This document shows, piece after piece, positions 25,166 to 50,549 of a stretch of 64,000 nt of DNA. Source of the stretch: a virus; IMG/VR virus record IMGVR_UViG_3300025096_000004, positions 32,001-96,000 of that record. One strand, written 5' to 3'. A model generated the notes under the pieces. That model was not told the origin of the DNA. It worked only from the letters and a program-made list of their open reading frames with translations, and did no database searches. The position numbers and the translations under genes were made by a program. Each line of letters opens with the position of its first letter. Position 1 is the first letter of the stretch.

Positions 25166-26428
25166 ATGGAGTTTAAATTGTCTAAGAAAATTAGAGTCCT
25201 AACATTGGGAGATCATCCACTTTCTCCTTCTGGAGTCGGGACGCAAACAAAATATATTTGTCAAGGTCTATTGGACACTGGCAATTTTTCTATTTTGAGT
25301 CTTGGTGGAGCAGTCAAGCACAAAGACTACCGTCAGGTTCAAGTCGAACCTTATGACAATGATTGGAGAATTATTCCGATTGATGGTTATGGAACGCCGG
25401 AGATGATTCGTTCTGTAATTAGAACAGAAAGTATCGACATGGTATGGATTATGACAGATCCTCGTTTCTGGGATTGGCTTTGGATGATGGAAAATGAAAT
25501 ACGACCGCTGTGTCCGTTGATTTATTATCATGTGTGGGACAACTTTCCCGCACCGATGTTTAATAGAGATTTTTATTTGTCAAACGATCATATAGTTACA
25601 ATCTCAAAAGTAACAGATGCGATTGTCAAAGAGGTTGCACCAGAGGTACCTAGAACATACTTGCCTCACGCCGTCGACCAAACCATATTTAAACCATATT
25701 CAGATGATGAACTGGTCAAAGTAAAACATCAACTTTGGGCACAACAAGATCACGACCCAGATGTTTTTACTGTATTTTGGAACAATCGAAATGCCCGACG
25801 AAAACAATCTGGAACTTTAATATATTGGTTTAAATATTTTTTAGATAAGGTTGGTCATGATAAAGCTCGATTACTTATGCATACGGACCCTAGAGATCCC
25901 CATGGACAAGATTTGCCACTTCTCATCGAGAGCCTCGGGTTGAATAATAAACAGGTGATGCTTTCTACGGAGAAACTTCCACCTGAACATTTAGCTGCAA
26001 TTTATAATGCAGCCGATTGCACAATAAATATTTCTGACGCCGAGGGTTTTGGCCTCTCTACTTTGGAATCTTTGTCCTGCGGCACACCTATCATTGTTAA
26101 TTTGACAGGGGGACTTCAAGAACAAGTAACAAATGGTACAGATTGGTTTGGTTTTGGCATACCCCCCATTTCTAAGGCCCTGATTGGTAGTCAAAATGTT
26201 CCTTATATTTATGAAGATCGTATTAGCAAGGATCAATTTGTAGAGACCTTATTTAAAATGTATTCAATGACTTCTCAATCTAGACGAAAAATGGGCATGG
26301 AAGGTCGATTGCACGTAGAGGCGAATTATAATTTTAATAATTATAAGAAACAATGGGCGGAGTTGATGATGAAGATCTTCGAAGAAGGTAACAGCTATAA
26401 TAATATTATGTTTAAGGAGGTAGCGTGA
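25166..26428 (+). CDS. GT-B glycosyltransferase (GT4-like)
   Basis: SGVGTQ, NRNARRKQ, IYNAADC...SDAEGFGLSTLESLSCGTPII...GGLQEQ. Confidence 0.88.
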   Translation: MEFKLSKKIRVLTLGDHPLSPSGVGTQTKYICQGLLDTGNFSILSLGGAVKHKDYRQVQVEPYDNDWRIIPIDGYGTPEMIRSVIRTESIDMVWIMTDPRFWDWLWMMENEIRPLCPLIYYHVWDNFPAPMFNRDFYLSNDHIVTISKVTDAIVKEVAPEVPRTYLPHAVDQTIFKPYSDDELVKVKHQLWAQQDHDPDVFTVFWNNRNARRKQSGTLIYWFKYFLDKVGHDKARLLMHTDPRDPHGQDLPLLIESLGLNNKQVMLSTEKLPPEHLAAIYNAADCTINISDAEGFGLSTLESLSCGTPIIVNLTGGLQEQVTNGTDWFGFGIPPISKALIGSQNVPYIYEDRISKDQFVETLFKMYSMTSQSRRKMGMEGRLHVEANYNFNNYKKQWAELMMKIFEEGNSYNNIMFKEVA

Positions 26429-27651
26429 AAAAGAGAATTTTAGTCAGAGGTCCTGTTTTGTCTCAATCTGGTTATGGAGAACAAGCCCGGTTTGCTCTTC
26501 GAGCCTTAAGGTCACAAGAGGATAAATATGATATACATATCCAACCAATCAGGTGGGGTCAAACAGGCTGGATTTGGGAAGATACCGAAGAACGCCGCTG
26601 GATGGACGAAATGATTACTAAGGGCGCAAATTATATGCGCCAAAAGGGACAGTATGATATTTCATTACAGATTACTATTCCAAATGAGTGGGACCAAACC
26701 GCGCCTCTTAATATTGGATACACTGCTGGTATTGAGTCCGACCGCGTTGCTCCACAATGGCTCTTTAAAGCGAATCAAATGGACAAAGTGGTTGTGGTAT
26801 CTAATCATTCAAAAACTGTATTTGAAAAAACTCAAGTTGAGGGGAAGGATCCCTCTACTGGCCAAACAATGAAATATGAACTGACAACCCCAATTGATGC
26901 TGTTGGTTATGCTGTAACTGATTATCCAACAGAGAATATTAAAGAATTTAGCCCCACCACTGATTTCAACTTTTTGTGTATTTCACAATGGGGCCCAAGA
27001 AAGAATTTTGAAAACACTATTAGATGGTGGGTTGAGGAATTTCATGATCAAAATATTGGCTTGATTCTTAAAACTTCGATTGCAAGCAATAGTACTATTG
27101 ATAAAACTAAAACAGAAGAATTGTTGACCTCGATTTTATCTAAATATAAAAGTCGAAAATGTAAAGTTTATATGCTTCATGGGGATTTATCTGCCGGCCA
27201 AATGCGCTGGCTATATAGCCACGAAAAAGTAAAATGTTTGATAAATTTGGCACACGGCGAAGGCTTTGGACTTCCAATGTTTGAGGCTTCTCAAAATGGT
27301 TTGCCCGTTATGACCATTGGCTGGTCTGGACAAATGGACTATTTGACTCAAGATAACAAAGAATACTTTATTAAAATTGATCATAAATTGGAGCCAATAG
27401 GGACCAATGCTGTTTGGGATGGTGTATTGCAAGCAGATTCAAAGTGGGCATATGCCGAACAGGGTTCTTTTAAGATGAATCTCCGAAAGGTCCGGAAAAA
27501 TTGGAAAAAATTCAAAAAACAAGCAACAAAACTACAATCATTAATTAAAGAAAGATATACTCAAGAAATTATGTATAAACAGTTTTGTGATTCAATAGAA
27601 AATATAAAACTTCATACTCACCCTATGTTTGGAGAACTAGAGACAGAATGA
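26425..27651 (+). CDS. GT-B glycosyltransferase
   Basis: SQSGYG, QWGPRKN, HGEGFGLPMFEA...GWSGQMDY. Confidence 0.85.
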   Translation: MKKRILVRGPVLSQSGYGEQARFALRALRSQEDKYDIHIQPIRWGQTGWIWEDTEERRWMDEMITKGANYMRQKGQYDISLQITIPNEWDQTAPLNIGYTAGIESDRVAPQWLFKANQMDKVVVVSNHSKTVFEKTQVEGKDPSTGQTMKYELTTPIDAVGYAVTDYPTENIKEFSPTTDFNFLCISQWGPRKNFENTIRWWVEEFHDQNIGLILKTSIASNSTIDKTKTEELLTSILSKYKSRKCKVYMLHGDLSAGQMRWLYSHEKVKCLINLAHGEGFGLPMFEASQNGLPVMTIGWSGQMDYLTQDNKEYFIKIDHKLEPIGTNAVWDGVLQADSKWAYAEQGSFKMNLRKVRKNWKKFKKQATKLQSLIKERYTQEIMYKQFCDSIENIKLHTHPMFGELETE

Positions 27652-28628
27652 GAACAGCTTTTATAACTGGGGTTAATGGACAAGATGGTTCCTATTTATC
27701 TGAATATCTATTACAAAAAGGGTATAGGGTTGTTGGTTTAATAAGAAGAACAAGCACATCAGAGAGAGAAAAATATAAAAATCTTGAAAATATCTTGGAT
27801 AATAAAAATTTCATTTTGGAGACCGGAGATTTAACGGATATAACTTCAATAATAAGAATTATAAAAAAACATAAGCCCCACGAATTATATAATTTGGCGG
27901 CACAATCCCATGTTGGGGAGTCTTTTAATAGCCCCGTAATGACAATGAATGTTAATGCTCTAGGCACAATAAATATTTTAGAAGCCATTAGGATTTGTGA
28001 CAAAAATATTAAATTATATCAGGCTTCAACTTCGGAAATGTTTGGAGACTTGAGCGCAATCCAGAATGAAAATACCACATTTAACCCTGTTTCTCCATAC
28101 GCATGCTCTAAGGTGTGTGCCCACAACATGGTAGTTAACTATAGAAAGGCATATAATTTGTTTGCAAGTTGTGGTATATTATTTAATCATGAATCTCCAA
28201 GACGAGGTGAAGATTTTGTCACCAGAAAAATAACCAAAGCCGCCGCCCGAATTAAATTAGGTAAACAAAGCAAGATTTACCTAGGGAATATAAAAACTTA
28301 TAGGGATTGGGGATATGCTGGTGATTATGTCGAGGCTATGTGGAAAATATTAAATCACACTAAGCCTGATGATTTTGTTATAGCAAGTAGTAATAGTATC
28401 ACCGTTGAAGATTTTTTGAAAATTGTTTTTAATATAGCAGATTTAGATTATAAAGACTTTCTTGTCATAGACAAGTCTTTGTTTCGACCACATGATGTTC
28501 CGTATTTGAAAGGCGATGCGACAAAAGCAAAAGAAGTATTGGATTGGAAACCCAAAACCACCCTAGAGGAACTTGCCAAGATGATGTATGAAAATGATTT
28601 TGTATTGGAGAGCAAAGATGTCAAATAG
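27648..28628 (+). CDS. gmd: GDP-mannose 4,6-dehydratase
   Basis: FITGVNGQDGSYL, YNLAAQSHV, YQASTSEMFG, SPYACSK, GILFNHESPRRGEDFVTRKIT, RDWGYAGDYV. Confidence 0.95.
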   Translation: MRTAFITGVNGQDGSYLSEYLLQKGYRVVGLIRRTSTSEREKYKNLENILDNKNFILETGDLTDITSIIRIIKKHKPHELYNLAAQSHVGESFNSPVMTMNVNALGTINILEAIRICDKNIKLYQASTSEMFGDLSAIQNENTTFNPVSPYACSKVCAHNMVVNYRKAYNLFASCGILFNHESPRRGEDFVTRKITKAAARIKLGKQSKIYLGNIKTYRDWGYAGDYVEAMWKILNHTKPDDFVIASSNSITVEDFLKIVFNIADLDYKDFLVIDKSLFRPHDVPYLKGDATKAKEVLDWKPKTTLEELAKMMYENDFVLESKDVK

Positions 28629-29523
28629 TGTGACTGTAGTATGTTTTGGGGCGTATGGAGATATCTTAAATTCAACCCCAATAGCAAAGCATTACAAAAT
28701 GGAAGGAAAAGATGTTACTTGGGTGACCAAAAGAAAATATTCATCTTGTATAGACAATAATCCATATATTGATCAAATTTTTTATTTTAAAAAAGATATA
28801 GAAAATCAATTTGATTATGTATATATGACTTTTAGCTGCATGGAGCATCCTTTATTCAATACCCCATCATCAATGTCTATATCTAAGATATTGCCAAATT
28901 CAAAAGTGATCTTTTCCGCTCCTTATGCATCACCATATGCAGATGGCAGCCCAAGAAGCACTTTACTTAATATAATAAAAGACGAATGTAGTGGAATAAA
29001 AGAGTGGAATTGTGATTTTATTCCTATTGTTCGCTTGGCTTCCACCGAAGAAAAAGAAGCCATTAAATTTTACAGCAAGCTACAGGGCAATAAGAAAATT
29101 TTAATAGAATACGAATTTCACTCCGCTCAATCAATGTGGGACAAAGAATATCTTATTGAGACGTGTAAATATTTAAACAATAAAGATGTGGATATAATTT
29201 TAACTGGCAAGAACGAATTACCCTACTTAGAAGAATTAAAAACCCAATTTGATATCAATTTTTATCATTATCATGGCAGTTTTATGTCTAATGCTAAATT
29301 ATATAATCTAGTTGATATGTTTATAGGAGTCTCTTCAGGGATTACTTGTTTGACATCGTCTGATTATTGCGATACAAACAAAGAAAGAATTGAAGTAATC
29401 AAGGGTCCACATTGGGGCACTGCGGATTGGAAACACAATCAAGAAAACAAGACAATATGCTATAATTTTGATGAATATTGTAGAGCCCTTGATAAAACTA
29501 AGGAAGTTTTAAAAAGTGCTTAA
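28618..29523 (+). CDS. GT9/heptosyltransferase-like glycosyltransferase
   Basis: GAYGDILNSTP...WVT...NNPYID N-terminus and DMFIGVSSGIT C-terminal motif; start moved to ATG 28618. Confidence 0.6.
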   Translation: MSNSVTVVCFGAYGDILNSTPIAKHYKMEGKDVTWVTKRKYSSCIDNNPYIDQIFYFKKDIENQFDYVYMTFSCMEHPLFNTPSSMSISKILPNSKVIFSAPYASPYADGSPRSTLLNIIKDECSGIKEWNCDFIPIVRLASTEEKEAIKFYSKLQGNKKILIEYEFHSAQSMWDKEYLIETCKYLNNKDVDIILTGKNELPYLEELKTQFDINFYHYHGSFMSNAKLYNLVDMFIGVSSGITCLTSSDYCDTNKERIEVIKGPHWGTADWKHNQENKTICYNFDEYCRALDKTKEVLKSA

Positions 29524-30193
29524 TATTATTTATTTGAGCAATGAGGGGGATTTTGGAAAAAAAGGATTACAGTTATTGGAAGAAATAACCAATTTAGAGG
29601 TAAAAGGTAAATTTTTTGGGACAGAGATGACAAAGGGTGATATACCAGATAACACTGATTTAATAATTTCTTTTTGTTATCCCAAGCTTATCAAAAAAGA
29701 AGTTTTTGAAGTCGCACGTTTTGGGTGTATAAATTTCCATCCTGCCCCCCTTCCGGAATATAAGGGCTTCGCCGTGTATAATTTTGCAATACTAAATGGC
29801 GAAAAAGAGTGGGGTGTTTCTGCACATTTCATTGATCAAAAATTTGATACTGGAGATATTATAAAAGTTAATAGGTTTAAAATTGGTAAAGAAACAGCCC
29901 ATTCGTTGAGAAAAAAAAGCAGAGATAGGTTGCTTATTTTACTCAAAGAAGTAGCCAATGAATTTGCTTTGAGTGGTAAACTAACATCAATCAAGCAAGA
30001 CAAAAATAAAGGAAAATATTATTCGAAAAAGATGATGAATGAAAACAGAGTGATAACCCCATCCGATGATGCTATCACGATAGAGAGGAAAATTAGAGCA
30101 TTCTGGTGCCCCCCTTATGCCGGCGCCGCTATAAAATTAAATAATATTGAGTATACTTTAATAAATAAAGAGATATTAAAAACAATAGAATAG
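29516..30193 (+). CDS. Formyltransferase (likely sugar-nucleotide N-formyltransferase)
   Basis: CINFHPAPLPEYKG, GVSAHFID..FDTGDI; sits in a sugar cluster. Confidence 0.85.
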   Translation: MLNIIYLSNEGDFGKKGLQLLEEITNLEVKGKFFGTEMTKGDIPDNTDLIISFCYPKLIKKEVFEVARFGCINFHPAPLPEYKGFAVYNFAILNGEKEWGVSAHFIDQKFDTGDIIKVNRFKIGKETAHSLRKKSRDRLLILLKEVANEFALSGKLTSIKQDKNKGKYYSKKMMNENRVITPSDDAITIERKIRAFWCPPYAGAAIKLNNIEYTLINKEILKTIE

Positions 30194-30201
30194 GAGAAAA
30201 A

Positions 30202-30510
30202 ATGGCCGATACACTTGGAGGTTTAATAGATAAACTCATCACTATCGATATGAAAATGTGGAACAATCAAGAGTTTCTCTATGAAGTGAGGCGCCTTTCC
30301 TTTGATGAGTTTCAAAAAAAATACACTGAAACAGAGAAGAAAAGAATAGATTTGTTTAGTTCAGTTAAAAAATGTTGCGACTTAAATATGCAAAGGAATC
30401 AACTGATTGATGAAATCGATGAAAAAATAATAGACATTGTCAAGACAGCCCTTTCGGGCAAAAATATAGATGATGGAAAATTTATTCAAAGAAAACATAA
30501 AACATATTAA
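30202..30510 (+). CDS. Small helical protein (DUF4254-like)
   Basis: TLGGLIDKLITIDMKMW...LNMQRNQLIDEID; AGGAG SD. Confidence 0.6.
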   Translation: MADTLGGLIDKLITIDMKMWNNQEFLYEVRRLSFDEFQKKYTETEKKRIDLFSSVKKCCDLNMQRNQLIDEIDEKIIDIVKTALSGKNIDDGKFIQRKHKTY

Positions 30511-30533
30511 TCGAAGTCCTTAAGAGATACCAT

Positions 30534-31640
30534 ATGATAAGAATTTATGAACCATATTTAACAGAGTCAACTAAGAAGTACGCCCATGATGCAATAGAGT
30601 CTGGGTGGATTTCTTCTCAAGGCTCCTATATTGCTGTGGCTAGAGAAAGTTTGGCATCACTTATGGGAGTGAAACATTGTGTTCTTTTATCAAATGGAAC
30701 AACTGCAACCCATTGCTTGTCTAAAGGATTAAATTTTAAATATCCAAAAATAAAGAATTTAATTGTACCAAACAACGTCTATGTAGCAGCATGGAATTCT
30801 TTTTTACACGATGGTCAATATGAAGACATTACTGCGATCGATGCTTGCGAAGATACGTGGAATTACAATTTGGACAAATTATATAAAACTCTTGAAGAAG
30901 TAGATTTTGATACAACAGCGCTCTTGTGTGTTCACAATTTGGGAAACATTATAAATATACCGAAAATCAAAAGAGATTTTCCATCTTTGGTTATCGTTGA
31001 GGATAACTGTGAAGGGTTTTTGGGAAAATATGAGAATTCTTACTCTGGTACTCAATCTTTCTGCGCTTCAGTTTCTTTTTATGCTAACAAGAACATTACT
31101 TCGGGAGAAGGCGGCGCCTTTTTCACCAATTGTGATGAGACATATCATTATATTTCGTCATTTATAAATCAAGGAAACACAAAGGAGAAGTTTATTCATG
31201 ATAAGTTGTCGCAAAACTATAGAATGACAAATATCCAAGCCGCTCTTTTATTGGGACAAATTGAAGATTTGGAGTTGATTCGAGAAAAAAAGAATGTTAT
31301 TTTTGAAAAGTATAAACAAAAATTACCAAATATTGATAATGTAACAATCCAATCAAGAGAGGCTAATACAGACCCCGCCGATTGGATGATGGGCGTAAGA
31401 GTTACAAATGGCAAAACCTATAGCACCATTGAGTCGGAATTAAAATCAATGGGCGTCGAAACCCGTCCTATGTTTTATTGTTATAATAGACACAAACATC
31501 TTAAAAAGATTATAAAATCAGAAACAAACAAAGTAGCCGAACACCTTAGCTTATGTGGCTTTATGATACCAAGCCACCCCTTGTTGTCTGAATATGAGAC
31601 AGATTTTATAATAGATAGTATTGCAAAAATATCAAAATAA
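30534..31640 (+). CDS. DegT/DnrJ/EryC1/StrS PLP aminotransferase (perosamine synthase-like)
   Basis: SGWISSQG, NGTTATH, IVEDNCE, SFYANKNITSGEGG (PLP lysine), NYRMTNIQAA, ETRPMFY. Confidence 0.9.
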   Translation: MIRIYEPYLTESTKKYAHDAIESGWISSQGSYIAVARESLASLMGVKHCVLLSNGTTATHCLSKGLNFKYPKIKNLIVPNNVYVAAWNSFLHDGQYEDITAIDACEDTWNYNLDKLYKTLEEVDFDTTALLCVHNLGNIINIPKIKRDFPSLVIVEDNCEGFLGKYENSYSGTQSFCASVSFYANKNITSGEGGAFFTNCDETYHYISSFINQGNTKEKFIHDKLSQNYRMTNIQAALLLGQIEDLELIREKKNVIFEKYKQKLPNIDNVTIQSREANTDPADWMMGVRVTNGKTYSTIESELKSMGVETRPMFYCYNRHKHLKKIIKSETNKVAEHLSLCGFMIPSHPLLSEYETDFIIDSIAKISK

Positions 31641-32121: not shown

Positions 32122-32531
32122 CGATACTTAATATATGGTTAATAGTGGCCTTGACTCTTTCGTTAACAGCAAATATTTTGTTGGTGTGGTACCTTCGAAA
32201 ACTTCTTGATAAATTTCTATTTATATCCCAAAACCTTGGTGATTTAGTAGAAATGGTTGAAAATTATCATGCGCACCTCAAACATGTTAATAATATGGAA
32301 ACTTATAATGGAGACGAAACAATAGAGTACTTACTACGCCACACACATAGTTTGATTGATTTAATGGATGATTATAGAGATGTTTACGATATTAGCATAC
32401 CTTTAGAAGGAAAACAGGAGAACCTAGATAATGAAGAACGAGACACCCAAATTGAAGAGGAGGAGGCGGAGCCGGTCTCGATCTCCGAAGAAAATGTATT
32501 TTACGCAGGAACACGAAGACGCAATAGTTAA
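32118..32531 (+). CDS. N-terminally membrane-anchored hypothetical protein
   Basis: Hydrophobic IWLIVALTLSLTANILLVWYL; acidic tail overlaps the sigma gene. Confidence 0.7.
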   Translation: MTILNIWLIVALTLSLTANILLVWYLRKLLDKFLFISQNLGDLVEMVENYHAHLKHVNNMETYNGDETIEYLLRHTHSLIDLMDDYRDVYDISIPLEGKQENLDNEERDTQIEEEEAEPVSISEENVFYAGTRRRNS

Positions 32532-33153
32532 ATATGCTCTTACAAATTGCAGAGAGGTAAGGACAGAGCTTTATGTTACGCTGCTTAAACCAGCATTTGA
32601 TGAAATGGTTGATAAAATAGTTTTTACTTATAAATTTACAACTTTGCCAAATATTGATGAATTAAGAGATGAGTGTAAGGTATGGCTAACTACTATTCTA
32701 GATAAGTATGATCCCAACAAGGGGTCCAAAGCTTTTTCATATTTTAGTGTTATAACGAAAAACTGGTTTATTCATAAGGTTAAACAAACAACTCGCCGAG
32801 CAAAGAGAGAAGTTGACTATGAATTGGTTGCAAAAGAAGTTGATGAAAAACTTGTTGATAACAGGAATATCTATGTTGAAACTCGAGAGAAAAAAGAGTT
32901 CTGGCAAAATCTTTGGAAAGAAATCGAAAGTTGGCAACCCGAAATGATGAAAGAGAATGAACGCAAGGTGTATGAAGCAGTAAAAATCCTTTTACAATCT
33001 GTGGATCAGATTGATATTTACAACAAAAAGGCGGTTTATCTTTATTTGAGAGAATTAACTGATTTAAACACTAAACAAGTTGTTAATCAACTCAATAAGA
33101 TGAGAAAAAAATATAAGGTATTTCGGAGGAATTGGGATGACGGGAAAATTTAA
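32431..33153 (+). CDS. Phage sigma factor (region-2-like; candidate late sigma)
   Basis: YFTQEHEDAI, DKYDPNKGSKAFSYFSVITKNWFI resembles sigma region 2; lies just upstream of the baseplate module. Confidence 0.7.
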   Translation: MKNETPKLKRRRRSRSRSPKKMYFTQEHEDAIVKYALTNCREVRTELYVTLLKPAFDEMVDKIVFTYKFTTLPNIDELRDECKVWLTTILDKYDPNKGSKAFSYFSVITKNWFIHKVKQTTRRAKREVDYELVAKEVDEKLVDNRNIYVETREKKEFWQNLWKEIESWQPEMMKENERKVYEAVKILLQSVDQIDIYNKKAVYLYLRELTDLNTKQVVNQLNKMRKKYKVFRRNWDDGKI

Positions 33154-33171: not shown

Positions 33172-33477
33172 ATGGCAAGCGAATTAGATAAATATTTACA
33201 AGAGACAGTGGACAATATCCGCAATGATAGAGAGGTCACCAAAGAATTGTTAGATGATGCAATGAAATGGTTAGCCAAGGACGAATCTCGTCATCGTGAG
33301 TTGGGACTTGTATTATCAAAATATGTTGAAACATTGCAGAGATCAAATGAGCAGTTGGTAAAAGTGGCCTCTCTTATTTCAAAAAAAGCATCATCCCAAG
33401 ATCTTACTGATGATGACAAAGAGCAAATATTTGATATGATCAAGGGAGATGAAAAAGATGAAACATCACAATCCTGA
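33172..33477 (+). CDS. Hypothetical coiled-coil protein (101 aa)
   Basis: ORF with KYVETLQRSNEQL; function not recognised. Confidence 0.7.
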   Translation: MASELDKYLQETVDNIRNDREVTKELLDDAMKWLAKDESRHRELGLVLSKYVETLQRSNEQLVKVASLISKKASSQDLTDDDKEQIFDMIKGDEKDETSQS

Positions 33478-34642
33478 TTTGTTAGCAGATGATCATAGTC
33501 TAAGTCAAGTTCGTCAAGATATGGAGGATGATATAATTAAAGATGCTTTTTTTGATTTTACCAAAGGTAAGAGAAATTGGAGAGCAGTTTGTTTGACCGA
33601 TTCGGACTCATCAGATAAAAAAATGATAAATTCGCTAGATGGCTCTCGACTGCCAATCAAACTAAGAGTGTTGGATACATTGGATTCTGTTCTACCCAAC
33701 CCCTGTGCTCTTAAGTTTTCTGAGCCCGAGGTGAAAAAGATAGTTTCACTTTACCCAACCGGATGGTCAACACAGCCATTCGAAAATCGATACTCTTTGC
33801 CGTCATTTGGGCATGTATTAAGGGTCTCTTTTAATGAAAAAGGCCCCGCCGAACAAGGCCGCCACAGAGGTCTTCAGTACACATATAAGACAGATAAAGA
33901 AACAGAACGTTACGACTGTGAAACACGAAAGTTTATGGGCGGCCTAACTAGTTTTACAGGAAGAAATGCTAGATTATTGAGGTCTGTTGCCCCCGGTGCC
34001 GCCGGACCTCATGGCGCCATAGGCCCTCCTCTTGGCGCCGCCTCTTGGGATGACACCGTCGGCGCGGGTGAAACACATTGGTCTAATGAAGATACGAAGA
34101 ATAACTATATGGACAGCAATCACTCTAATCGAAATTCATATGATGATTTGATTGTCAAGTGGTCGTCTCAATATAATATTGATCCAAATTTGGTCAAAGC
34201 ACTCATATGGGCCGAGAGTGGTTTTAAAATCAAAGCTCAATCGAACAAAGGCGCCTCCGGCCTGACTCAGATCATGCCAGATACTCAAGAGAGTATTAAT
34301 AAAGTTTTAAAATATAAAACAATAAATTTGGGAGATCCCGACCAAGCGGTTCATTTTGGCGTTTATTATCTTGTAAGAAAAATAAATCAAGTCGCAGAGA
34401 AGAATTATGTAGACAAATATAAGGACGTCGAAAATGTAAACGCCGGCGGTAAAGGATATAGTGCGCTTGAATTGGGCTTAATATCATATAACTCTGGTCG
34501 AGGAAACTTGGTAAAATACGGCCCAAAGACAGTTATGGGTGAGAGATGGGACTGCAAAAACAACGCTTGTGGTCAAACAAGAAAATATGTTCGAAAGGTG
34601 ACAGCATGGTATGAATGGCTCCTCGCGAATGAAAAATTATAG
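33458..34642 (+). CDS. Baseplate-associated protein: shared N-terminal domain plus SLT lytic transglycosylase
   Basis: YDDLI...YNIDPNLVKALIWAESG, GASGLTQIMP, SYNSG, TRKYVRKV; start moved to 33458 (GGGAG SD). Confidence 0.85.
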   Translation: MKHHNPDLLADDHSLSQVRQDMEDDIIKDAFFDFTKGKRNWRAVCLTDSDSSDKKMINSLDGSRLPIKLRVLDTLDSVLPNPCALKFSEPEVKKIVSLYPTGWSTQPFENRYSLPSFGHVLRVSFNEKGPAEQGRHRGLQYTYKTDKETERYDCETRKFMGGLTSFTGRNARLLRSVAPGAAGPHGAIGPPLGAASWDDTVGAGETHWSNEDTKNNYMDSNHSNRNSYDDLIVKWSSQYNIDPNLVKALIWAESGFKIKAQSNKGASGLTQIMPDTQESINKVLKYKTINLGDPDQAVHFGVYYLVRKINQVAEKNYVDKYKDVENVNAGGKGYSALELGLISYNSGRGNLVKYGPKTVMGERWDCKNNACGQTRKYVRKVTAWYEWLLANEKL

Positions 34643-34657
34643 AAAGAGGTACGCAAA

Positions 34658-36025
34658 ATGACTTATTTAAATCCTGACTTGATAGCTGATGATTTTTCGC
34701 TAAGCCAAATTCTCGAGGAGAAGGTAGCGAATCAACATGATGATATTTACAATAATACAATTAGGGGCAAGGAGCATTTTACAAGCAGGGTGATAACAAA
34801 CAGCGCATTACGCGGAAAAGATGAAAACTATACTGGCCGTCATTTTTTCTGTAAGGCACGTCCTCTTGACACAATGCATGATCATTGTGTTCCTGATCCA
34901 TGCACCAACCACAAGCTTGGAAAGGAGCAGCAAAAATTATTAATTAGCCTTCATCCCACTATGGTCTCCAAGAGTCCAATGAATGAGAATCAACGACCGC
35001 CAAGGTTTAGTGATAAGATAAAAATGTCTTTTTATGGAGAGGGTCCAAATGGAATGACAGCAAAAATGCGCGATATTAGATATTCCCACAAAAGCAAAAT
35101 AGATGAATTTCAATATGCATGCGCTTTTGAAGAGATAGAAGAAATGGCAGGTATGTTTGGATCTGGCCTCCCTTCAGAGCCCTTAAACCGATCAGGTGGG
35201 AACAGAAAACAGAGAGGTGACTTCCCCGACGCCAGTCTTTTTCACAACACGACTGACGGCCTCCCTGACAACCCATCGCCCAACATCCCCGGTCCATTTT
35301 CGAAATATTATGATTGTTCTAAAAAATATAAGTATACAGGCCAGCACCCTGACTTTCAAGGTCAAGAAATATATAATGGCCAATTTCCCAATGAACTCTT
35401 GGCCCTTGCTAAACACGGAAAAGGCGGCGGTGCTGGGCAAGAGAATGGAAAAACCATTTTGGCTCGCGAGGCTGTTAGATCATATGATGAAATGGCAAAA
35501 GCATATCACGCCGACACCGGCCGCGATCTTGTTGCTTCGGGCTATCGCCCGGTATATCGTCAACAGGACGCCCGCCAAGATGCTATTAAAAAATATGGTT
35601 CTCATTCCGGCTCGAAGGCATACAAAAAAACTGCAACCCCCGGAAATTCAAAGCATGGCCTCGGCCTTGCCGTCGATTTTAAGAATGGTAACATTGATCA
35701 CAGTGTCTATGGTTGGACAGATAAAACATATTATTGGTTGGTTGACAATGCCAATGCCTTTGGCTGGTACCACCCTTCTTGGGCTGCAAAGAATGATGAT
35801 AATGAACCGTGGCATTGGGAATATAAGTTTGCAGATAAAATTTTAAAGCTGAATACTGAATCCAAATCAGAAGCCCGAGCACGTCGAAGAGCTTTTGAGA
35901 AAGCCAACAAAATCGATTGCTCCAAGCGCAATCCAAAACTAAAAGTTTCGATAGATCCACTTGACACTGATACGACTTTATTTGATAGTCCTTTACTTAT
36001 TCAAATTCAACAGGGAGTGGCATAG
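34658..36025 (+). CDS. Baseplate-associated protein: shared N-terminal domain plus M15 (VanY-like) peptidase
   Basis: SGYRP, ATPGNSKHGLGLAVD (SxHxxGxAxD), EPWHWEY. Confidence 0.85.
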   Translation: MTYLNPDLIADDFSLSQILEEKVANQHDDIYNNTIRGKEHFTSRVITNSALRGKDENYTGRHFFCKARPLDTMHDHCVPDPCTNHKLGKEQQKLLISLHPTMVSKSPMNENQRPPRFSDKIKMSFYGEGPNGMTAKMRDIRYSHKSKIDEFQYACAFEEIEEMAGMFGSGLPSEPLNRSGGNRKQRGDFPDASLFHNTTDGLPDNPSPNIPGPFSKYYDCSKKYKYTGQHPDFQGQEIYNGQFPNELLALAKHGKGGGAGQENGKTILAREAVRSYDEMAKAYHADTGRDLVASGYRPVYRQQDARQDAIKKYGSHSGSKAYKKTATPGNSKHGLGLAVDFKNGNIDHSVYGWTDKTYYWLVDNANAFGWYHPSWAAKNDDNEPWHWEYKFADKILKLNTESKSEARARRRAFEKANKIDCSKRNPKLKVSIDPLDTDTTLFDSPLLIQIQQGVA

Positions 36026-36028
36026 ATT

Positions 36029-37690
36029 ATGGGCGTTGAATATTATACAAATAATTTAGATGCTCTTGCTGATGATCATTCTTTAAGGGATATGCGTCGT
36101 CAACTTCTTTCTGATGCTTTGGATCAAAATGAGTTTAACACAAAAAAAAGAAGAAATGAATATATTGGTACTGTTCTTTCGAACGAGCAAGAGGCGGATT
36201 TCCCACAGGCCTCCGCCGGAGGCCAATCTATTGCTGTAAAGGTAAGGCTCGATGAAGCTCAAGAAGAATATTTGCCAGATTTTTGTGCTGACACTTGGAC
36301 TGAAAAGCAAAAATTTATTCTCTTGTCTTGTCATGGATCCGCCGTTAGTCATACTCCGCTCGTCGATGATAACGGCGAAAGAGTTCCTAAATTTGGGGAT
36401 CGATTGAGTCTTTTTTTCTCTGAGGAGTCTCCTGATTTCTATGGGAGAATGAGGGATTTAAGATATAGATACCCAACTAGCGAGGGGGAGATGTGGAAAA
36501 AGAAGTGCCCTCCAGCAAAACCATTTCTATTAGCTGAGATTGTCGGAGACAAGATTCAAATCAATGAAGAAATATTTTTTGCTTTTGACAAATGGGATAT
36601 AAAAGAAGTCAGCTTTAAAGTTTTATCCGCTGTTGCAAAAATCCTTAAAGCCAATCCAAGAATAAAAATCAAACTTGATGGACACACTGATAGTCGTGGC
36701 AGCAATAAATATAACATGGCTCTTTCCAAAAAGAGAGTGGCTTCTGTTTTTAAGCACTTAACAGAAGTAAACGGAGTGTCGGCATCTCAAATACCAAAGC
36801 GACAGGGCCATGGCGAAACAAAGCCATGGAGCAAGTTGTGTGACCAATATGGGGATCACCTCAAGAGAAACCCACCTAACACACCTAGAGGAAAAAAAGA
36901 ATGGACCTATTGTCACGCCAAAAACCGTCGGGTTGAATTTAATATTATTGAAGGATTGGAATCCGGCGCTGCTAGTTATGGCTCCGCCACCGCAACTACC
37001 GAACCCACCAAAACCGCCGCCGAATCCACCTCTGAAGCAGACACCTCTTCTGAAAAAAGACGAAAACATGAGGAAAAGGCCAAAGAGGGTCAAGAAGATC
37101 CATCTAAACCAGAAGAAGTCCGCGACGATCCTTCCCAATCCGAAGCATACATAGAAAAATCAGCAGAAACAAATTCAGAAAATTGGCAAAAGTGGTATGA
37201 ACATAAACTATCATCAGAAACAGATCCTGTCATGAGATCGACTCTAGAAGAATATATTCAAAATGAAAAGAATTATAGAAGAGATCGCCCTTATGGCGAA
37301 GACCCCATAAACATTTATCCGCCCCGCTGGCGCGGAGGAAATTCTTTAGAAGAGTGGCATAGACCTGCACCTCAAACAGATTTCGAGACAGGCCACAACA
37401 CTCCCTCTTCCGGTGATGCCTATGCTTGGGTGCCGTCAGTGGACATGACCATCGAGGCCGCCAAGGGATATATGGAACATCAACAGAGCAAGATGCAAGA
37501 TTTGTTTAACGAGTATGAACTACAACACAAAAAAGAAGGATATGACGCAGTCAATGAGTTTCTTCCTGATCCATGCGCCCCCGGGCTTTCTGAACAAGAA
37601 CGTCAACGAATTTTGTCAATGTACCCACTAGACCACCCACTCAGGACGGGAGAGAGGGATTGCTATGGCATCCCTGCTGATGCGGGCTGA
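36029..37690 (+). CDS. Baseplate-associated protein: shared N-terminal domain plus OmpA-like peptidoglycan-binding domain
   Basis: IFFAFDKWDI, LDGHTDSRGSNKYNMALSKKRVASV, GHGE, KNRRVEF. Confidence 0.85.
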   Translation: MGVEYYTNNLDALADDHSLRDMRRQLLSDALDQNEFNTKKRRNEYIGTVLSNEQEADFPQASAGGQSIAVKVRLDEAQEEYLPDFCADTWTEKQKFILLSCHGSAVSHTPLVDDNGERVPKFGDRLSLFFSEESPDFYGRMRDLRYRYPTSEGEMWKKKCPPAKPFLLAEIVGDKIQINEEIFFAFDKWDIKEVSFKVLSAVAKILKANPRIKIKLDGHTDSRGSNKYNMALSKKRVASVFKHLTEVNGVSASQIPKRQGHGETKPWSKLCDQYGDHLKRNPPNTPRGKKEWTYCHAKNRRVEFNIIEGLESGAASYGSATATTEPTKTAAESTSEADTSSEKRRKHEEKAKEGQEDPSKPEEVRDDPSQSEAYIEKSAETNSENWQKWYEHKLSSETDPVMRSTLEEYIQNEKNYRRDRPYGEDPINIYPPRWRGGNSLEEWHRPAPQTDFETGHNTPSSGDAYAWVPSVDMTIEAAKGYMEHQQSKMQDLFNEYELQHKKEGYDAVNEFLPDPCAPGLSEQERQRILSMYPLDHPLRTGERDCYGIPADAG

Positions 37691-46302: not shown

Positions 46303-46683
46303 ATGTCATCCCCTAAAGCCGCACCAAAATTACCAATTGAAATTGTTAATGGAACAGTTGATTCATTTGATATTTCTGAAGTACAAGAGATTGTAAAACA
46401 AAATGTCAAAATGGTTGTATTAACTTATCCCGGAGAAAGGATAATGATGCCAGAGTTTGGCGTAGGTATGCCAAGATATCTTTTTGAACAAGCAGGTTCT
46501 GAGATCCCAGCAGAACTTAAAATGATTATAAGAGACCAATTGAAAAGATATATTCCATCTATTAATTTATTAAATGTCTCTGTAAGATCCGGTTTTGATG
46601 ATCATAAATTAAATGTTTCGATATCTTATGAGATTGACTTTTTAAGTATAAAAGATCGACTAGATTTGTTATTGGAGTATTAA
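46303..46683 (+). CDS. Baseplate wedge protein, GPW/gp25 family
   Basis: VKQNVKMVVLTYPGERIMMPEFGVGM...IRDQLKRYIP. Confidence 0.9.
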   Translation: MSSPKAAPKLPIEIVNGTVDSFDISEVQEIVKQNVKMVVLTYPGERIMMPEFGVGMPRYLFEQAGSEIPAELKMIIRDQLKRYIPSINLLNVSVRSGFDDHKLNVSISYEIDFLSIKDRLDLLLEY

Positions 46684-46728: not shown

Positions 46729-48534
46729 ATGGCAAGAAAAAAACAAATTCCAATAAAATATACTAGTAGAGATTTTATTTCCATAAAGAGTGAACTAATA
46801 GAACACGCAAGGAGATATTATTCCGAAACGTATAAAGACTTCTCCGCCGCATCTTTCGGTTCTTTAGTTATAGATACTGTTTCTTATGTGGGAGATGTGC
46901 TATCATTTTATTTGGACTATCAGGCAAATGAGAGTTTTATGGAGACTGCCATTGAGTCAGAAAATGTCCGCCGCCATGCCAAAAATTTGGGATATAAATA
47001 TAATACAAATAGTAATTCTTTTGGTTTTGTTTCGTTGTATATTATAGTTCCATCAAATTCCGATGGCTCTTCTCCTGATTTTTCTTATGTGCCAATTTTA
47101 AAATGGGGCTCATCATTTAAATCATCAACTGGTGCCGAATATAGTTTAACAGAAAATGTCGATTTTGGGAATGCGAAAAACGATATTGTATCTGCCCGAT
47201 TTGATTCAACCACTGGTATGACTACTCATTTTGCAATCCGTGCGATAGGCCAAGTGGTGTCCGGCCAGACTGGTGCCATATCGCTTGATTTAACTTCACA
47301 TCCTTTTGAAAAATTCAAGCGTGTCCGCCTTGGTGGAACAGATATCACTGAAGTCATTTCAATAACGGATAACGAAGGTCATATATGGTATGAGGTTGAT
47401 AATTTGTCTCAGGAGATAGTATTTTTGGATACGACCAACCGCAATGCTTTTAACGATGGCGTCCCAAGTATTATTAAACCATTTGTTGCAGCTAGGCGAT
47501 TTGTTGTGGACCAAGGTCCAGAAGGAACATATTTGCAATTTGGCAATGGGTCTGATTTGTCAACACAAGTAACGGGACTCCTCGAGCCAACCCGAGTTGG
47601 CATGAAACTTTATGGAAAAAGAAATATCTCCTCTTTATCATTTGACCCCACTCACCTGATTAATTCTGGAAAACTAGGTATGTGTCCAAGTGGCAAACAC
47701 CTTCGAGCAGTAGTTAAGATAAATCCTTTCACGCAGGGATATTCTTCTCCTGTTGGGTCGATAAACACTGCTCTCACTTTCGAACTTCAATTTGAAGATC
47801 CAACTTCTCTAGATCCAACGATCATAAACTCAATCATAGATTCTCTAGAAGTAAACAACGACGATCCCATTGTTGGGTCTAATGAAGAACTGACAAAAGA
47901 TGAAATTAAAATAAGAGCAAGGGCCCACTATGCAATGCAAAACAGAGCAGTAACCGCCGGCGATTATGAATCGTTGGTTTACTCTATGCCGCCTAATTTT
48001 GGCACAGTCAAAAGGTGTAATATTATAAACGATCCGTCTTCTGCAAATCGCCGACTGGCTATGTATGTCATCTCTGAAAATGAAGACGGCCACCTAACCT
48101 CAACAAACAATATTATAAAAAATAATTTAAAAAACTGGATATCGATATATCGTTCCATAAATGATGTTGTCGATATACTTGATGCAAAGGTTGTAAATTT
48201 TGGTGTTGAATTTTCTGTTGTAACGTCCGCACAGTACAATTCGCAGGATGTCATACAATCTGCAATTTATGAACTACAAGAATATTTTAAGGATGGTATG
48301 TATATTGGAGAACCTTTGTATCTTAGTGAGATTTATAGGGCATTGAATTCAACTCCCGGCGTTGTTGATGTGAAAAATGTTAAGATAAATATTAAATCTG
48401 GCGGAGTGCATTCCGCTAACACTCTAGATTTAGATGAAATATTGTCCCGAGATGGTACATACTATAAGGTTCCAAAAAATGTAATAATGGAATTGAAGTT
48501 CCACCAGTTGGATATTAAAGGTATTATTAGATAA
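46729..48534 (+). CDS. Baseplate wedge subunit, T4 gp6/baseplate-J-like
   Basis: YTSRDF..IK..L, YVGDVLSFYLDYQANESF, LQFGNG, QNRAVTAGDYE. Confidence 0.88.
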   Translation: MARKKQIPIKYTSRDFISIKSELIEHARRYYSETYKDFSAASFGSLVIDTVSYVGDVLSFYLDYQANESFMETAIESENVRRHAKNLGYKYNTNSNSFGFVSLYIIVPSNSDGSSPDFSYVPILKWGSSFKSSTGAEYSLTENVDFGNAKNDIVSARFDSTTGMTTHFAIRAIGQVVSGQTGAISLDLTSHPFEKFKRVRLGGTDITEVISITDNEGHIWYEVDNLSQEIVFLDTTNRNAFNDGVPSIIKPFVAARRFVVDQGPEGTYLQFGNGSDLSTQVTGLLEPTRVGMKLYGKRNISSLSFDPTHLINSGKLGMCPSGKHLRAVVKINPFTQGYSSPVGSINTALTFELQFEDPTSLDPTIINSIIDSLEVNNDDPIVGSNEELTKDEIKIRARAHYAMQNRAVTAGDYESLVYSMPPNFGTVKRCNIINDPSSANRRLAMYVISENEDGHLTSTNNIIKNNLKNWISIYRSINDVVDILDAKVVNFGVEFSVVTSAQYNSQDVIQSAIYELQEYFKDGMYIGEPLYLSEIYRALNSTPGVVDVKNVKINIKSGGVHSANTLDLDEILSRDGTYYKVPKNVIMELKFHQLDIKGIIR

Positions 48535-50549
48535 TGGCTATTATAAGATACACTGCTAGCGCAGACAACACAATAACAAATGCTTTTACTGAGACAATCT
48601 TGTCTTCACAGAGAGCCACCGGATCGAACATGGGAAAATCCGATGTGCTTGAAGTATTTTCTATATATGGCCAGAGTTCCGGGTCCACAGGAGTTTCATC
48701 CGAATTGTCGAGGGTTTTGATCAAGTTCAACACAACAAAGATTGCTTCTGATCGCAATACATCAGCAGTCTTGCCGGCTTCCGGGTCTGTTAATTTCTAT
48801 CTTTGTCTTTATAATGCCCCGCATGTTTCAACCCTTCCAGAAGACTATAAGTTAACAGTAGCTCGTGTAACAAATGACTGGGAAGAGGGCTATGGCCTTG
48901 ATATGGATAATTATACAGACAAGACATATGATGGTATCGGCTCTAATTGGGTGAATGCCCAAGGAAGCCCAGCAGCAGCAACATTGGTCGATGCGATTGA
49001 TCTGACCGGCGTTTCCTATGGTGATAAATTTACGATGACAGTCCCAACCTCCGCAGGTGGAGATGGTGTCGCCCACCAATTTGTATTTGATCGTCATACC
49101 GACATCGACAACCTCTCCGATACAACTGGTTTTGGTATTAACACCCAGCATGCCGCCGACGATGCAGCAAAGGCTGCAATCTTGATTAATGCTATAAATG
49201 GAACAGCCGATACTAACAACTATCAATACGGCGGTGCTGCCCTCAGTGCCGGATCAACCCTAGCGGCTGGAACATTGGGACTCACAGCAAAGCAAGGCTC
49301 TAGCACCTCCAAGATTACTTTAACAATGGACGACAAAGGCGATGCTGGAAATGTGGCAGTTCTGACCCGTGTTACTGGATTTGCTGGTAGCAAACTAGTC
49401 ATCACCGCCGCCACCGGCGGACAGGGCCCATGGACAAATTTCGGTGGAGATTTTGTAACAGCCGCCAATAGCGGCATGGACTTTGTTGATGTATCTTTTC
49501 CAGATGGCGATGAGGATATTAAAGTGGATATCACATCAATTGTTGAGGGTTGGGTTACCACTGGTAATACAAACTATGGATTGATAGTTAAGATGTCTTC
49601 AAGTTATGAGGCATATTTTTCTGCATCCTCCGGCGCTGATACGGCCACTGCAACACACAACACATCTGGCGCCAAGCGATCTTATTATACTAAGAAATTC
49701 TTTGGCCGAGGTACTGAGTATTATTTTAAAAGACCTGTCATAGAAGCTCGATGGGATGATTCAGTCAAAGACGATAGGGGCAATATTTATCTCTCAAGTT
49801 CATTGGCTCCTCAAGCTGATAACCTTAACAAAATTTACTTATATAATTACATCAGGGGCAAACTCACAGATATCAAAGGCAACAGCAGTGAGGTACCCAA
49901 TGTTAAATTTTATTATTCCTCCGGCTCTGTACCAGAAGGCCTGCCGAGAACCTTTATTGAAAGTAATTCTTCTAAAACCAGTAACAACGCAACCCGGATC
50001 TCGAAGGGGTTATACAGCATCTCTTTCGCAATTAACAAAGATCAATTTCCAGATGGCTATCCATATCTCATCGATGTTTGGGCCCATGAGGGCAAGGAAA
50101 TACACACTGGCTCCGCAATGTTGCCCAAGTCTTTTGGATTTTCAAGTGTGAATCCAAATTCTCAATATGTTCTCGCAATATCAAACATGCGAAAGTACTA
50201 TAACAAAGATGAAACTGCAAGGTTTCGAGTATCAATTCGCTCAAAGGATTGGTCACCCACCATACACACAATAGCCTCAAACAATGTTGAATTGGCCACG
50301 GTTCCGAGTGCTTCCTACGAAATTTATAGAGTTATTGATGAAGAGATCGTCATTCCTTTTGGAACTGGTTCAATAGCACACACTATGTTATCACATGATG
50401 TGTCTGGAAACTATTTTGATCTTGATATGGGTAATTTAGAGCCGGGCTATTCTTACGGCGTTAAAATATCGATATACGAAGATTCAATCGGCTCATATCG
50501 AGAACAGCCATATACATTTAAGTTTAGAGTAAGAAAAGATGAGTATTGA
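48534..50549 (+). CDS. 671-aa baseplate/tail protein (DNRLRE-like beta-sandwich with insertion)
   Basis: YTASADNTI, SRVLIKF, VARVTNDWEEG, RPVIEARW; coupled to the gp6-like gene. Confidence 0.6.
   Translation: MAIIRYTASADNTITNAFTETILSSQRATGSNMGKSDVLEVFSIYGQSSGSTGVSSELSRVLIKFNTTKIASDRNTSAVLPASGSVNFYLCLYNAPHVSTLPEDYKLTVARVTNDWEEGYGLDMDNYTDKTYDGIGSNWVNAQGSPAAATLVDAIDLTGVSYGDKFTMTVPTSAGGDGVAHQFVFDRHTDIDNLSDTTGFGINTQHAADDAAKAAILINAINGTADTNNYQYGGAALSAGSTLAAGTLGLTAKQGSSTSKITLTMDDKGDAGNVAVLTRVTGFAGSKLVITAATGGQGPWTNFGGDFVTAANSGMDFVDVSFPDGDEDIKVDITSIVEGWVTTGNTNYGLIVKMSSSYEAYFSASSGADTATATHNTSGAKRSYYTKKFFGRGTEYYFKRPVIEARWDDSVKDDRGNIYLSSSLAPQADNLNKIYLYNYIRGKLTDIKGNSSEVPNVKFYYSSGSVPEGLPRTFIESNSSKTSNNATRISKGLYSISFAINKDQFPDGYPYLIDVWAHEGKEIHTGSAMLPKSFGFSSVNPNSQYVLAISNMRKYYNKDETARFRVSIRSKDWSPTIHTIASNNVELATVPSASYEIYRVIDEEIVIPFGTGSIAHTMLSHDVSGNYFDLDMGNLEPGYSYGVKISIYEDSIGSYREQPYTFKFRVRKDEY

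Follow-up and report, generated by a model that had tools for sequence, protein, structure and literature searches.

Why should a phage encode, side by side, three proteins that share one N-terminal domain but end in three different peptidoglycan-directed modules? The question is posed by a 64,000-nucleotide stretch (the window), bases 32001-96000 of the 191,495-bp IMG/VR virus record IMGVR_UViG_3300025096_000004, which is rated complete by CheckV and, judged by its gene content, is that of an uncultured marine T4-type myovirus. Three consecutive genes in the window, here called A, B and C (Table 1), had been read in an earlier note, made from the letters alone, as a modular system of adaptor and payload on the baseplate hub. 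The answer we favour, at a probability of roughly 0.68, is that A, B and C are triplicated spike-head adaptors of the gp5* type with payloads, that one subunit of each most likely enters the spike, and that together they would open the cell wall.

Three paralogous genes with different wall-directed modules

The N-terminal 150 residues of A, B and C are 26-30% identical in pairwise comparison (BLASTP E-values of 8e-20, 1e-18 and 3e-16), and all six motif triplets on which the earlier note had based its claim of tandem paralogy were recovered in the alignment. The similarity is far beyond chance and, at the level of sequence, the shared domain is real. It is longer than the approximately 145 residues first proposed, extending to about residue 175: the 67% identity between A and its relative P0002 stops at residue 177. 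The Gly/Pro-rich linker that had been described for each of the three proteins is clear in A and B, whereas its counterpart in C is no more than a short stretch, CPPAKP.

The three modules were named correctly at the outset, and each of them scores above its curated Pfam cut-off with its signature motifs intact. Protein A ends in an SLT lytic transglycosylase domain (PF01464, residues 234-358, E = 1.8e-21, 76.3 bits against a cut-off of 21.3) in which the AES (catalytic Glu-Ser), GLTQ and YNSG motifs are preserved. In B there is a VanY peptidase domain (PF02557, residues 268-389, E = 6.7e-17, 62 bits against a cut-off of 25) with both zinc-ligand motifs, SxHxxGxAxD being present as SKHGLGLAVD and ExxH as EPWH. 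The module of C is an OmpA-like domain (PF00691, residues 183-267, E = 1.3e-15, 57.9 bits against a cut-off of 27.2), with the GHTD..G....N..LS..R and NRRVE motifs both intact; the orthologue of C in a related metagenome locus, L099, is 59% identical over residues 1-331 only and keeps the OmpA-like domain. At its C-terminus C also carries a partial echo of the adaptor core, which matches residues 59-118 of A with an E-value of 1.8e-4 and positions 76-106 of the hidden Markov model with an E-value of 8.5e-4. The L099 orthologue lacks this echo, and a fainter one is seen at the C-terminus of the LysM paralogue of locus L008.

The three genes are tightly packed: B starts 15 nucleotides past the stop codon of A, and C starts 3 nucleotides past that of B. 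Each gene is preceded by a ribosome-binding site; the one before A favours 33458 over the ATG at 33449 as the start, and the gaps between the three genes hold no terminator-like site.

Fold of the shared domain and its likeness to central tail spikes

The structure of A was predicted with AlphaFold2 from an alignment of 121 family members. Residues 11-160 were modelled at a confidence (pLDDT) above 90, as a long N-terminal helix (residues 9-35) leading into a barrel of five strands that has a further helix inserted in it. As modelled, the shared domain is an N-terminal helix joined to an OB barrel, and the fold is secure. An OB fold of the gp5/VgrG kind had been anticipated, and the best structural matches are indeed spike domains of the gp5, VgrG and gpV type. 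In an exhaustive structural comparison the top ranks were taken by central-spike proteins of contractile injection systems (CIS) at Z-scores of 5.1-6.2, a middling level. The best match was a baseplate chain of phage P1 (9vzk_q, Z 6.2); the spike of cyanophage A-1(L) (8kea_D) scored 5.4-5.7, with an alignment running from the N-terminal helix onward (residue 4), the PVC, VgrG1, AFP and Streptomyces CIS spikes 5.1-5.3, and the phiKZ spike 5.1. A second structural comparison returned spike proteins as nine of its 11 best matches, and aligned 93 residues with the OB domain of T4 gp5 (1k28_A, residues 6-128) at a Z-score of 5.4.

The A-1(L) spike subunit begins with an N-terminal helix, continues with an OB fold and then a beta domain, and the three helices of the spike stand like a tripod on the tape-measure protein, at its C-terminal helices (PMC10966104); the modelled adaptor has the same layout of helix and OB fold as the start of this spike. 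Past the OB domain, the model of A contains only the linker and the helical SLT domain, and no beta-helix. Neither Pfam nor PHROGs holds a family model for the adaptor domain, and a profile search of PDB sequences with the adaptor family returned matches to the VanY part only, which resembles solved D-Ala-D-Ala carboxypeptidases.

We infer hub position, presence in the virion, a mixed trimer and an order of action as follows. A, B and C would correspond to the head of a central tail spike, in the manner of T4 gp5* (an OB domain plus an enzyme) minus the beta-helix, with the helix and OB barrel as docking adaptor. If solved spikes are a guide, the OB barrels would lie on the three-fold axis within the baseplate hub and the N-terminal helices would touch the end of the tape-measure protein, while the flexible linker would carry the payload. 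Tail contraction would bring the payloads into the periplasm, where the OmpA-like module would grip peptidoglycan, the SLT domain would cleave glycan strands, and the M15/VanY peptidase would cleave stem peptides or cross-links; their combined action would open the wall locally for the tail tube.

A gp5 split in this way would need a shaft or tip, for which the next gene product, H, called spike-like in the earlier note, may be a candidate. This conserved protein is encoded directly downstream of the adaptor gene or genes in all loci, and has 599 relatives at E ≤ 0.001. Its AlphaFold2 model (pLDDT 87) combines an N-terminal beta domain with a long helical hairpin (residues 209-298) and shows no beta-helix. 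Fold searches with H returned generic helical hairpins only, and were uninformative on the beta domain; a profile search of PDB sequences gave no match, and neither did Pfam or PHROG families. The leads obtained from a protein language model (Atlas) were weak (0.82-0.84) and pointed to DUF2345, to Gp5_C and to a cluster auto-named "putative Base plate lysozyme." The tip of the hairpin has an HxH motif in 37 of 69 relatives and a hydrophobic Gly/Ala/Pro loop in the others; the motif recalls the metal-binding apex of gpV-type spikes, but the fold of H is different. The possibility that H carries the OB fold of the adaptor was considered and rejected, a comparison of H with the adaptor in hhalign having given no relation.

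Payload exchange, gene order and the make-up of the proposed spike head

A profile of the three N-termini was searched against 1.84 billion representative proteins, and the matches, taken as representatives at 50% identity, gave 116 family members at E ≤ 0.001, in all of which the adaptor domain is N-terminal. It is fused to at least 15 kinds of module, mostly wall-directed. Pfam payloads among the 121 members are VanY (24), SLT (7), Amidase_2, tail lysozyme and M15_4 (5 each), LysM (4), M23, OmpA, dual-specificity phosphatase and DUF2272 (3 each), and YkuD, muramidase and GDSL lipase (2 each); further payloads in the family include T4-type lysozyme, GH19 and others. Within the set P0006-P0119, the dual-specificity/tyrosine phosphatases (3) and the GDSL lipases (2) are not obviously wall-directed, and such fusions hint that the adaptor can also deliver other effectors. 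A hand-made pattern scan of IMG/VR found two distant loci.

The occurrence of close adaptor orthologues with unrelated payloads argues that payload swapping is real. A is 67-68% identical to its closest relative, gene 1 of L099 (P0002), over residues 8-177, and beyond that point the similarity is zero; with the more distant P0004, A shares 55% identity over the adaptor and 59% over the SLT part. In the same way, the adaptors of gene 2 of L016 (VanY) and gene 2 of L008 (LysM) share 46% identity, with nothing beyond. Maximum-likelihood trees of the adaptor show genes clustering by position across genomes: A groups with gene 1 of L020 (support 97/89), B with L006 (of the L099 lineage) and gene 2 of L020 (97/98), and C with L005 (also of the L099 lineage) and gene 3 of L020 (87/91), and the genes of L008 and L016 pair first with first (100/98), second with second (83/85) and third with third (99/99). 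Such positional orthologues differ in payload (OmpA versus M23, M15_4 versus LysM, LysM versus VanY). A survey of related contigs for swapped payloads, as the earlier note had proposed, does find a conserved adaptor with changing payloads. The payload of gene 1 in L099 and in L100 was assigned to no family by our searches; it may be akin to the lysozymes of the lambda-R type.

Gene order was surveyed in 80 metagenome loci anchored on H (the best 80 of 554 such loci), with others added by exact look-up. The order late sigma factor, protein of about 100 residues, adaptor gene or genes, H, giant protein, gp25 and gp6 is conserved in about 50 complete loci. This bears on whether the proteins could instead be lysis-stage, endolysin-like enzymes that act outside the virion, with the N-terminal domain as a regulatory or export module. 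SLT and VanY domains do occur in endolysins as well, and some of the PHROG matches are labelled endolysin; however, the genes lie within the late baseplate operon in 50 of 50 complete surveyed loci, and because this context is invariable a role in lysis is poorly supported. None of the flanking genes examined was recognised as coding for a holin or spanin; of the paralogues, one is purely a binder and another, in L085, lacks a payload; and the best PHROG matches of the enzyme parts include tail and tape-measure lysins. We consider the lysis explanation very improbable.

Among the 50 distinct complete intervals, one clear adaptor gene is present in 36, one weak-signal gene in five, and three adaptor genes in six (the window, L008, L016, L085, L099 and L100); none has exactly two or exactly four. 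The L092 interval contains an adaptor gene and an unrelated gene of 675 codons, and L020, which is cut by the end of its contig, has at least three adaptor genes. In gene order, the payloads of the triplets are SLT, VanY and OmpA in the window; unassigned, VanY and OmpA in L099; M15_4, LysM and SLT in L008; weak LysM, VanY and SLT in L016; unassigned, unassigned and M23 in L020; and none, Amidase_2 and unassigned in L085, where the payload-less adaptor is a protein of 204 residues (L085:4593-5204). A set of glycan cutter, peptidase and binder is thus found in three triplet lineages, those of the window, L008 and L016.

Given that a spike has exactly three OB positions, three tightly coupled genes would most likely supply one subunit each. 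The copy number of one or three and the tight gene coupling argue for one subunit of each per spike, as do the repeated set of cutter, peptidase and binder and the payload-less subunit of L085, and on these gene arrangements the triplets probably form A-B-C heterotrimers. A more demanding proposal is that the heterotrimer is obligate and breaks the three-fold symmetry of the baseplate centre, and that it arose more than once by triplication of a gp5*-like gene with payloads exchanged position by position; this we advance tentatively, holding it to be somewhat less probable than its negation.

Several results count against the spike-head reading or parts of it. With regard to the spike itself, generic OB folds (IF1, RNase II) scored at Z ≤ 5.0, only about one unit below the best spike proteins; since they trail so closely, the fold is secure and context carries part of the case for the spike class. 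There is no match to Gp5_OB (PF06714) or Phage_base_V (PF04717) in A, B and C, in the 121 family members, or in the whole genome at E ≤ 10, and a profile search of the genome found no gp27-like hub protein. With no gp5- or gp27-type profile match in the genome (Gp5_C, too, is matched nowhere in its 191 kb), there is no competing spike candidate, yet there is also no spike membership at the sequence level. Nor was a cultured relative found: when the adaptor and H were compared with 50,697 phage records by tblastn, there were no matches. As for the trimer, the argument for a mixed one is drawn wholly from copy number and gene coupling, and two loci cut by contig ends, L037 and L078, carry two or more adaptor genes and may represent doublets. 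The solved phage spikes retrieved in this analysis are all described as homotrimers, and VgrG1 and VgrG2 of Serratia form no heterotrimers (PMC4924876). A last point is the number of independent triplications. The L085 triplet is monophyletic (100/100) and distant from the others, which indicates a separate triplication. The genes of L008 and L016 are monophyletic at 82/82 only, and in approximately unbiased (AU) tests their pairing with the lineage of A, B or C was not rejected (p 0.12-0.27). Three independent triplications were accordingly dropped as a claim: the tests allow a shared origin for the window and L008/L016, which leaves two triplications firmly independent of each other, with a possible third.

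The results on the spike bear on an explanation in which the adaptor docks away from the spike axis, either on the tape-measure protein in the lumen of the tube, as part of a set of ejected proteins, or at the periphery of the baseplate, its likeness to spike OB domains being that of a shared fold. Z-scores that hardly separate the OB domains of spikes from generic ones would suit this explanation, as would an adaptor with neither a beta-helix nor sequence-level membership of the spike class, and H could by itself be the whole spike. On the other hand, the layout of helix and OB barrel fits the A-1(L) spike from residue 1, spikes dominate the second structural comparison, no other spike OB candidate is detectable in the genome, and neither the adaptor nor any OB profile is related to H. 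We regard docking off the axis as quite unlikely.

The results on the trimer bear on a different explanation, which keeps the proteins at the spike head but has each paralogue form homotrimers, so that the virions would be a mixed population, each with three copies of one module, as a form of bet-hedging against different wall chemistries. Beyond the precedents cited above, the relatives with a single adaptor gene are necessarily homotrimeric. However, a virion with only the OmpA-like binder, or only the payload-less subunit of L085, would be enzyme-free; tight translational coupling fits subunits made in equal amounts; and the restriction of copy number to one or three, without two or four, and the set of cutter, peptidase and binder in the window, L008 and L016 likewise speak for one subunit of each. 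Segregated homotrimers seem to us unlikely, and a spike head built from one A, one B and one C subunit the more probable arrangement.

Genomic setting and comparison with known systems

The features of the module and its surroundings are collected in Table 1. Markers of the T4 type in the genome include a PhoH-like protein, the gp55-like late sigma factor, and the gp25 and gp6/Baseplate_J wedge proteins. Judged by gp6, the closest cultured phages are Microcystis phage Mel-JY01 and Flavobacterium phage immuto, at approximately 30% identity only, and the adaptor is absent from both.

Table 1. Positions of the adaptor genes and neighbouring features, in window coordinates.
Feature	Position	Strand	Remarks
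gp55-like late sigma factor	32431-33153	+	phrog_234 (late sigma), E = 2e-4; conserved, bounds the module on its upstream side
p101, acidic protein of ~100 residues	33172-33477	+	immediately upstream of the adaptor gene(s); overlap with gene A at its start
Paralogue A	33458-34642	+	adaptor ~33458-33980; Gly/Pro linker; SLT lytic transglycosylase domain ~34148-34522
Paralogue B	34658-36025	+	adaptor ~34658-35125; linker; VanY/M15 peptidase domain ~35459-35824
Paralogue C	36029-37690	+	adaptor ~36029-36496; OmpA-like peptidoglycan-binding domain ~36575-36829; acidic Ser/Thr-rich stretch; variable tail
Partial second adaptor-core copy in C	37493-37675	+	LPDPC...SMYP, at the C-terminus of C; E-values in the text
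H, conserved protein of 323 residues	37742-38713	+	directly downstream of the adaptor gene(s) in all loci
Giant protein of 2502 residues	38721-46229	+	no Pfam or PHROG match; position conserved
gp25-type baseplate wedge protein	46303-46683	+	PF04965, E = 3.4e-13; phrog_261, E = 1.2e-21
gp6/Baseplate_J-type wedge protein	46729-48534	+	phrog_219 and phrog_6, E about 6e-16; PF04865

In the surveyed loci the adaptor genes are preceded by homologues of the late sigma factor, and a homologue of p101 is found upstream of the adaptor gene or genes in most of those with enough upstream sequence. No Pfam or PHROG family was matched by p101; it may act as an assembly factor or as a cofactor of late transcription. 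The T4 late promoter TATAAATA was not found adjoining these genes. In every relative seen, a giant protein of 2100-2700 residues is encoded between H and gp25; farther downstream the window has two more giant open reading frames, one at 50539-58893 and the other from 58895 on.

A block of sugar-modification genes, at 25166-31640 of the window, shortly precedes the late sigma factor and includes a glycosyltransferase (phrog_2170) and, judged from translations only, open reading frames resembling a formyltransferase and a DegT-type aminotransferase. Comparable sugar blocks occur in relatives, that of L016 comprising DegT, epimerase, sulfotransferase and acetyltransferase genes. On the 630-kb scaffold JGI24652J20063_1000001 the H-containing module is present twice, approximately 185 kb apart (L071 and L072); this scaffold may have arisen by concatenation of a phage genome during assembly.

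Tail-associated wall hydrolases are well known, the lysozyme of T4 gp5 being a textbook example. A, B and C resemble gp5/gp5* of the gp27-gp5 device (PDB 1K28) in having an N-terminal OB domain, a linker and a peptidoglycan-cleaving domain encoded in a baseplate gene block. They differ from it in lacking the C-terminal triple-stranded beta-helix and any match to Gp5_OB or Gp5_C, in the extra N-terminal helix, in being three paralogous genes where gp5 is one, and in their modules, which are SLT, M15 or a binder rather than a T4-type lysozyme. The spikes of simple myophages (A-1(L) gp25, PDB 8KEA; P1 gp5, PDB 9VZK; Mu gp45; P2 gpV) share the layout of helix and OB fold, but run on into a beta domain and apex and are enzyme-free; in A-1(L) it is the hub protein gp15, rather than the spike, that bears the enzymes.

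The analogy to evolved VgrG and gp5 proteins that had been drawn in the earlier note holds for the working principle, a conserved spike scaffold with exchangeable effectors, as in VgrG-3 of Vibrio cholerae with its peptidoglycan-targeting C-terminal domain. It goes no further than that because the gp27-like domain and the beta-helix are absent: in A, B and C the payload comes straight after the OB domain, and the setting is a phage virion rather than a secretion system. Mixed trimers were reportedly proposed for the VgrGs of V. cholerae by Pukatzki in 2007. They are mentioned in PMC4453574, and heterotrimers are not general among VgrGs (PMC4924876). Virion-associated peptidoglycan hydrolases likewise have modular wall-degrading domains on structural proteins of the tail, and are frequently shuffled; what distinguishes the present case is a small dedicated adaptor family outside Pfam and PHROGs, encoded by one or three tandem genes, with payloads that include pure binders (OmpA, LysM). 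In the literature searchable here, we found no published description of a family of needle-split spike-head adaptors with swappable modules and one or three genes.

The family provides names for hundreds of hypothetical proteins in an abundant uncultured lineage of marine T4-type phages. If the heterotrimer is obligate, every virion would carry exactly one module each for cutting glycan, for cutting peptide and for anchoring to peptidoglycan. Should heterotrimers be borne out, a naturally symmetric phage organelle would have been turned into a device with three tools, and would provide a ready-made scaffold by which wall-binding or wall-cutting domains of choice could be attached to a phage tail.

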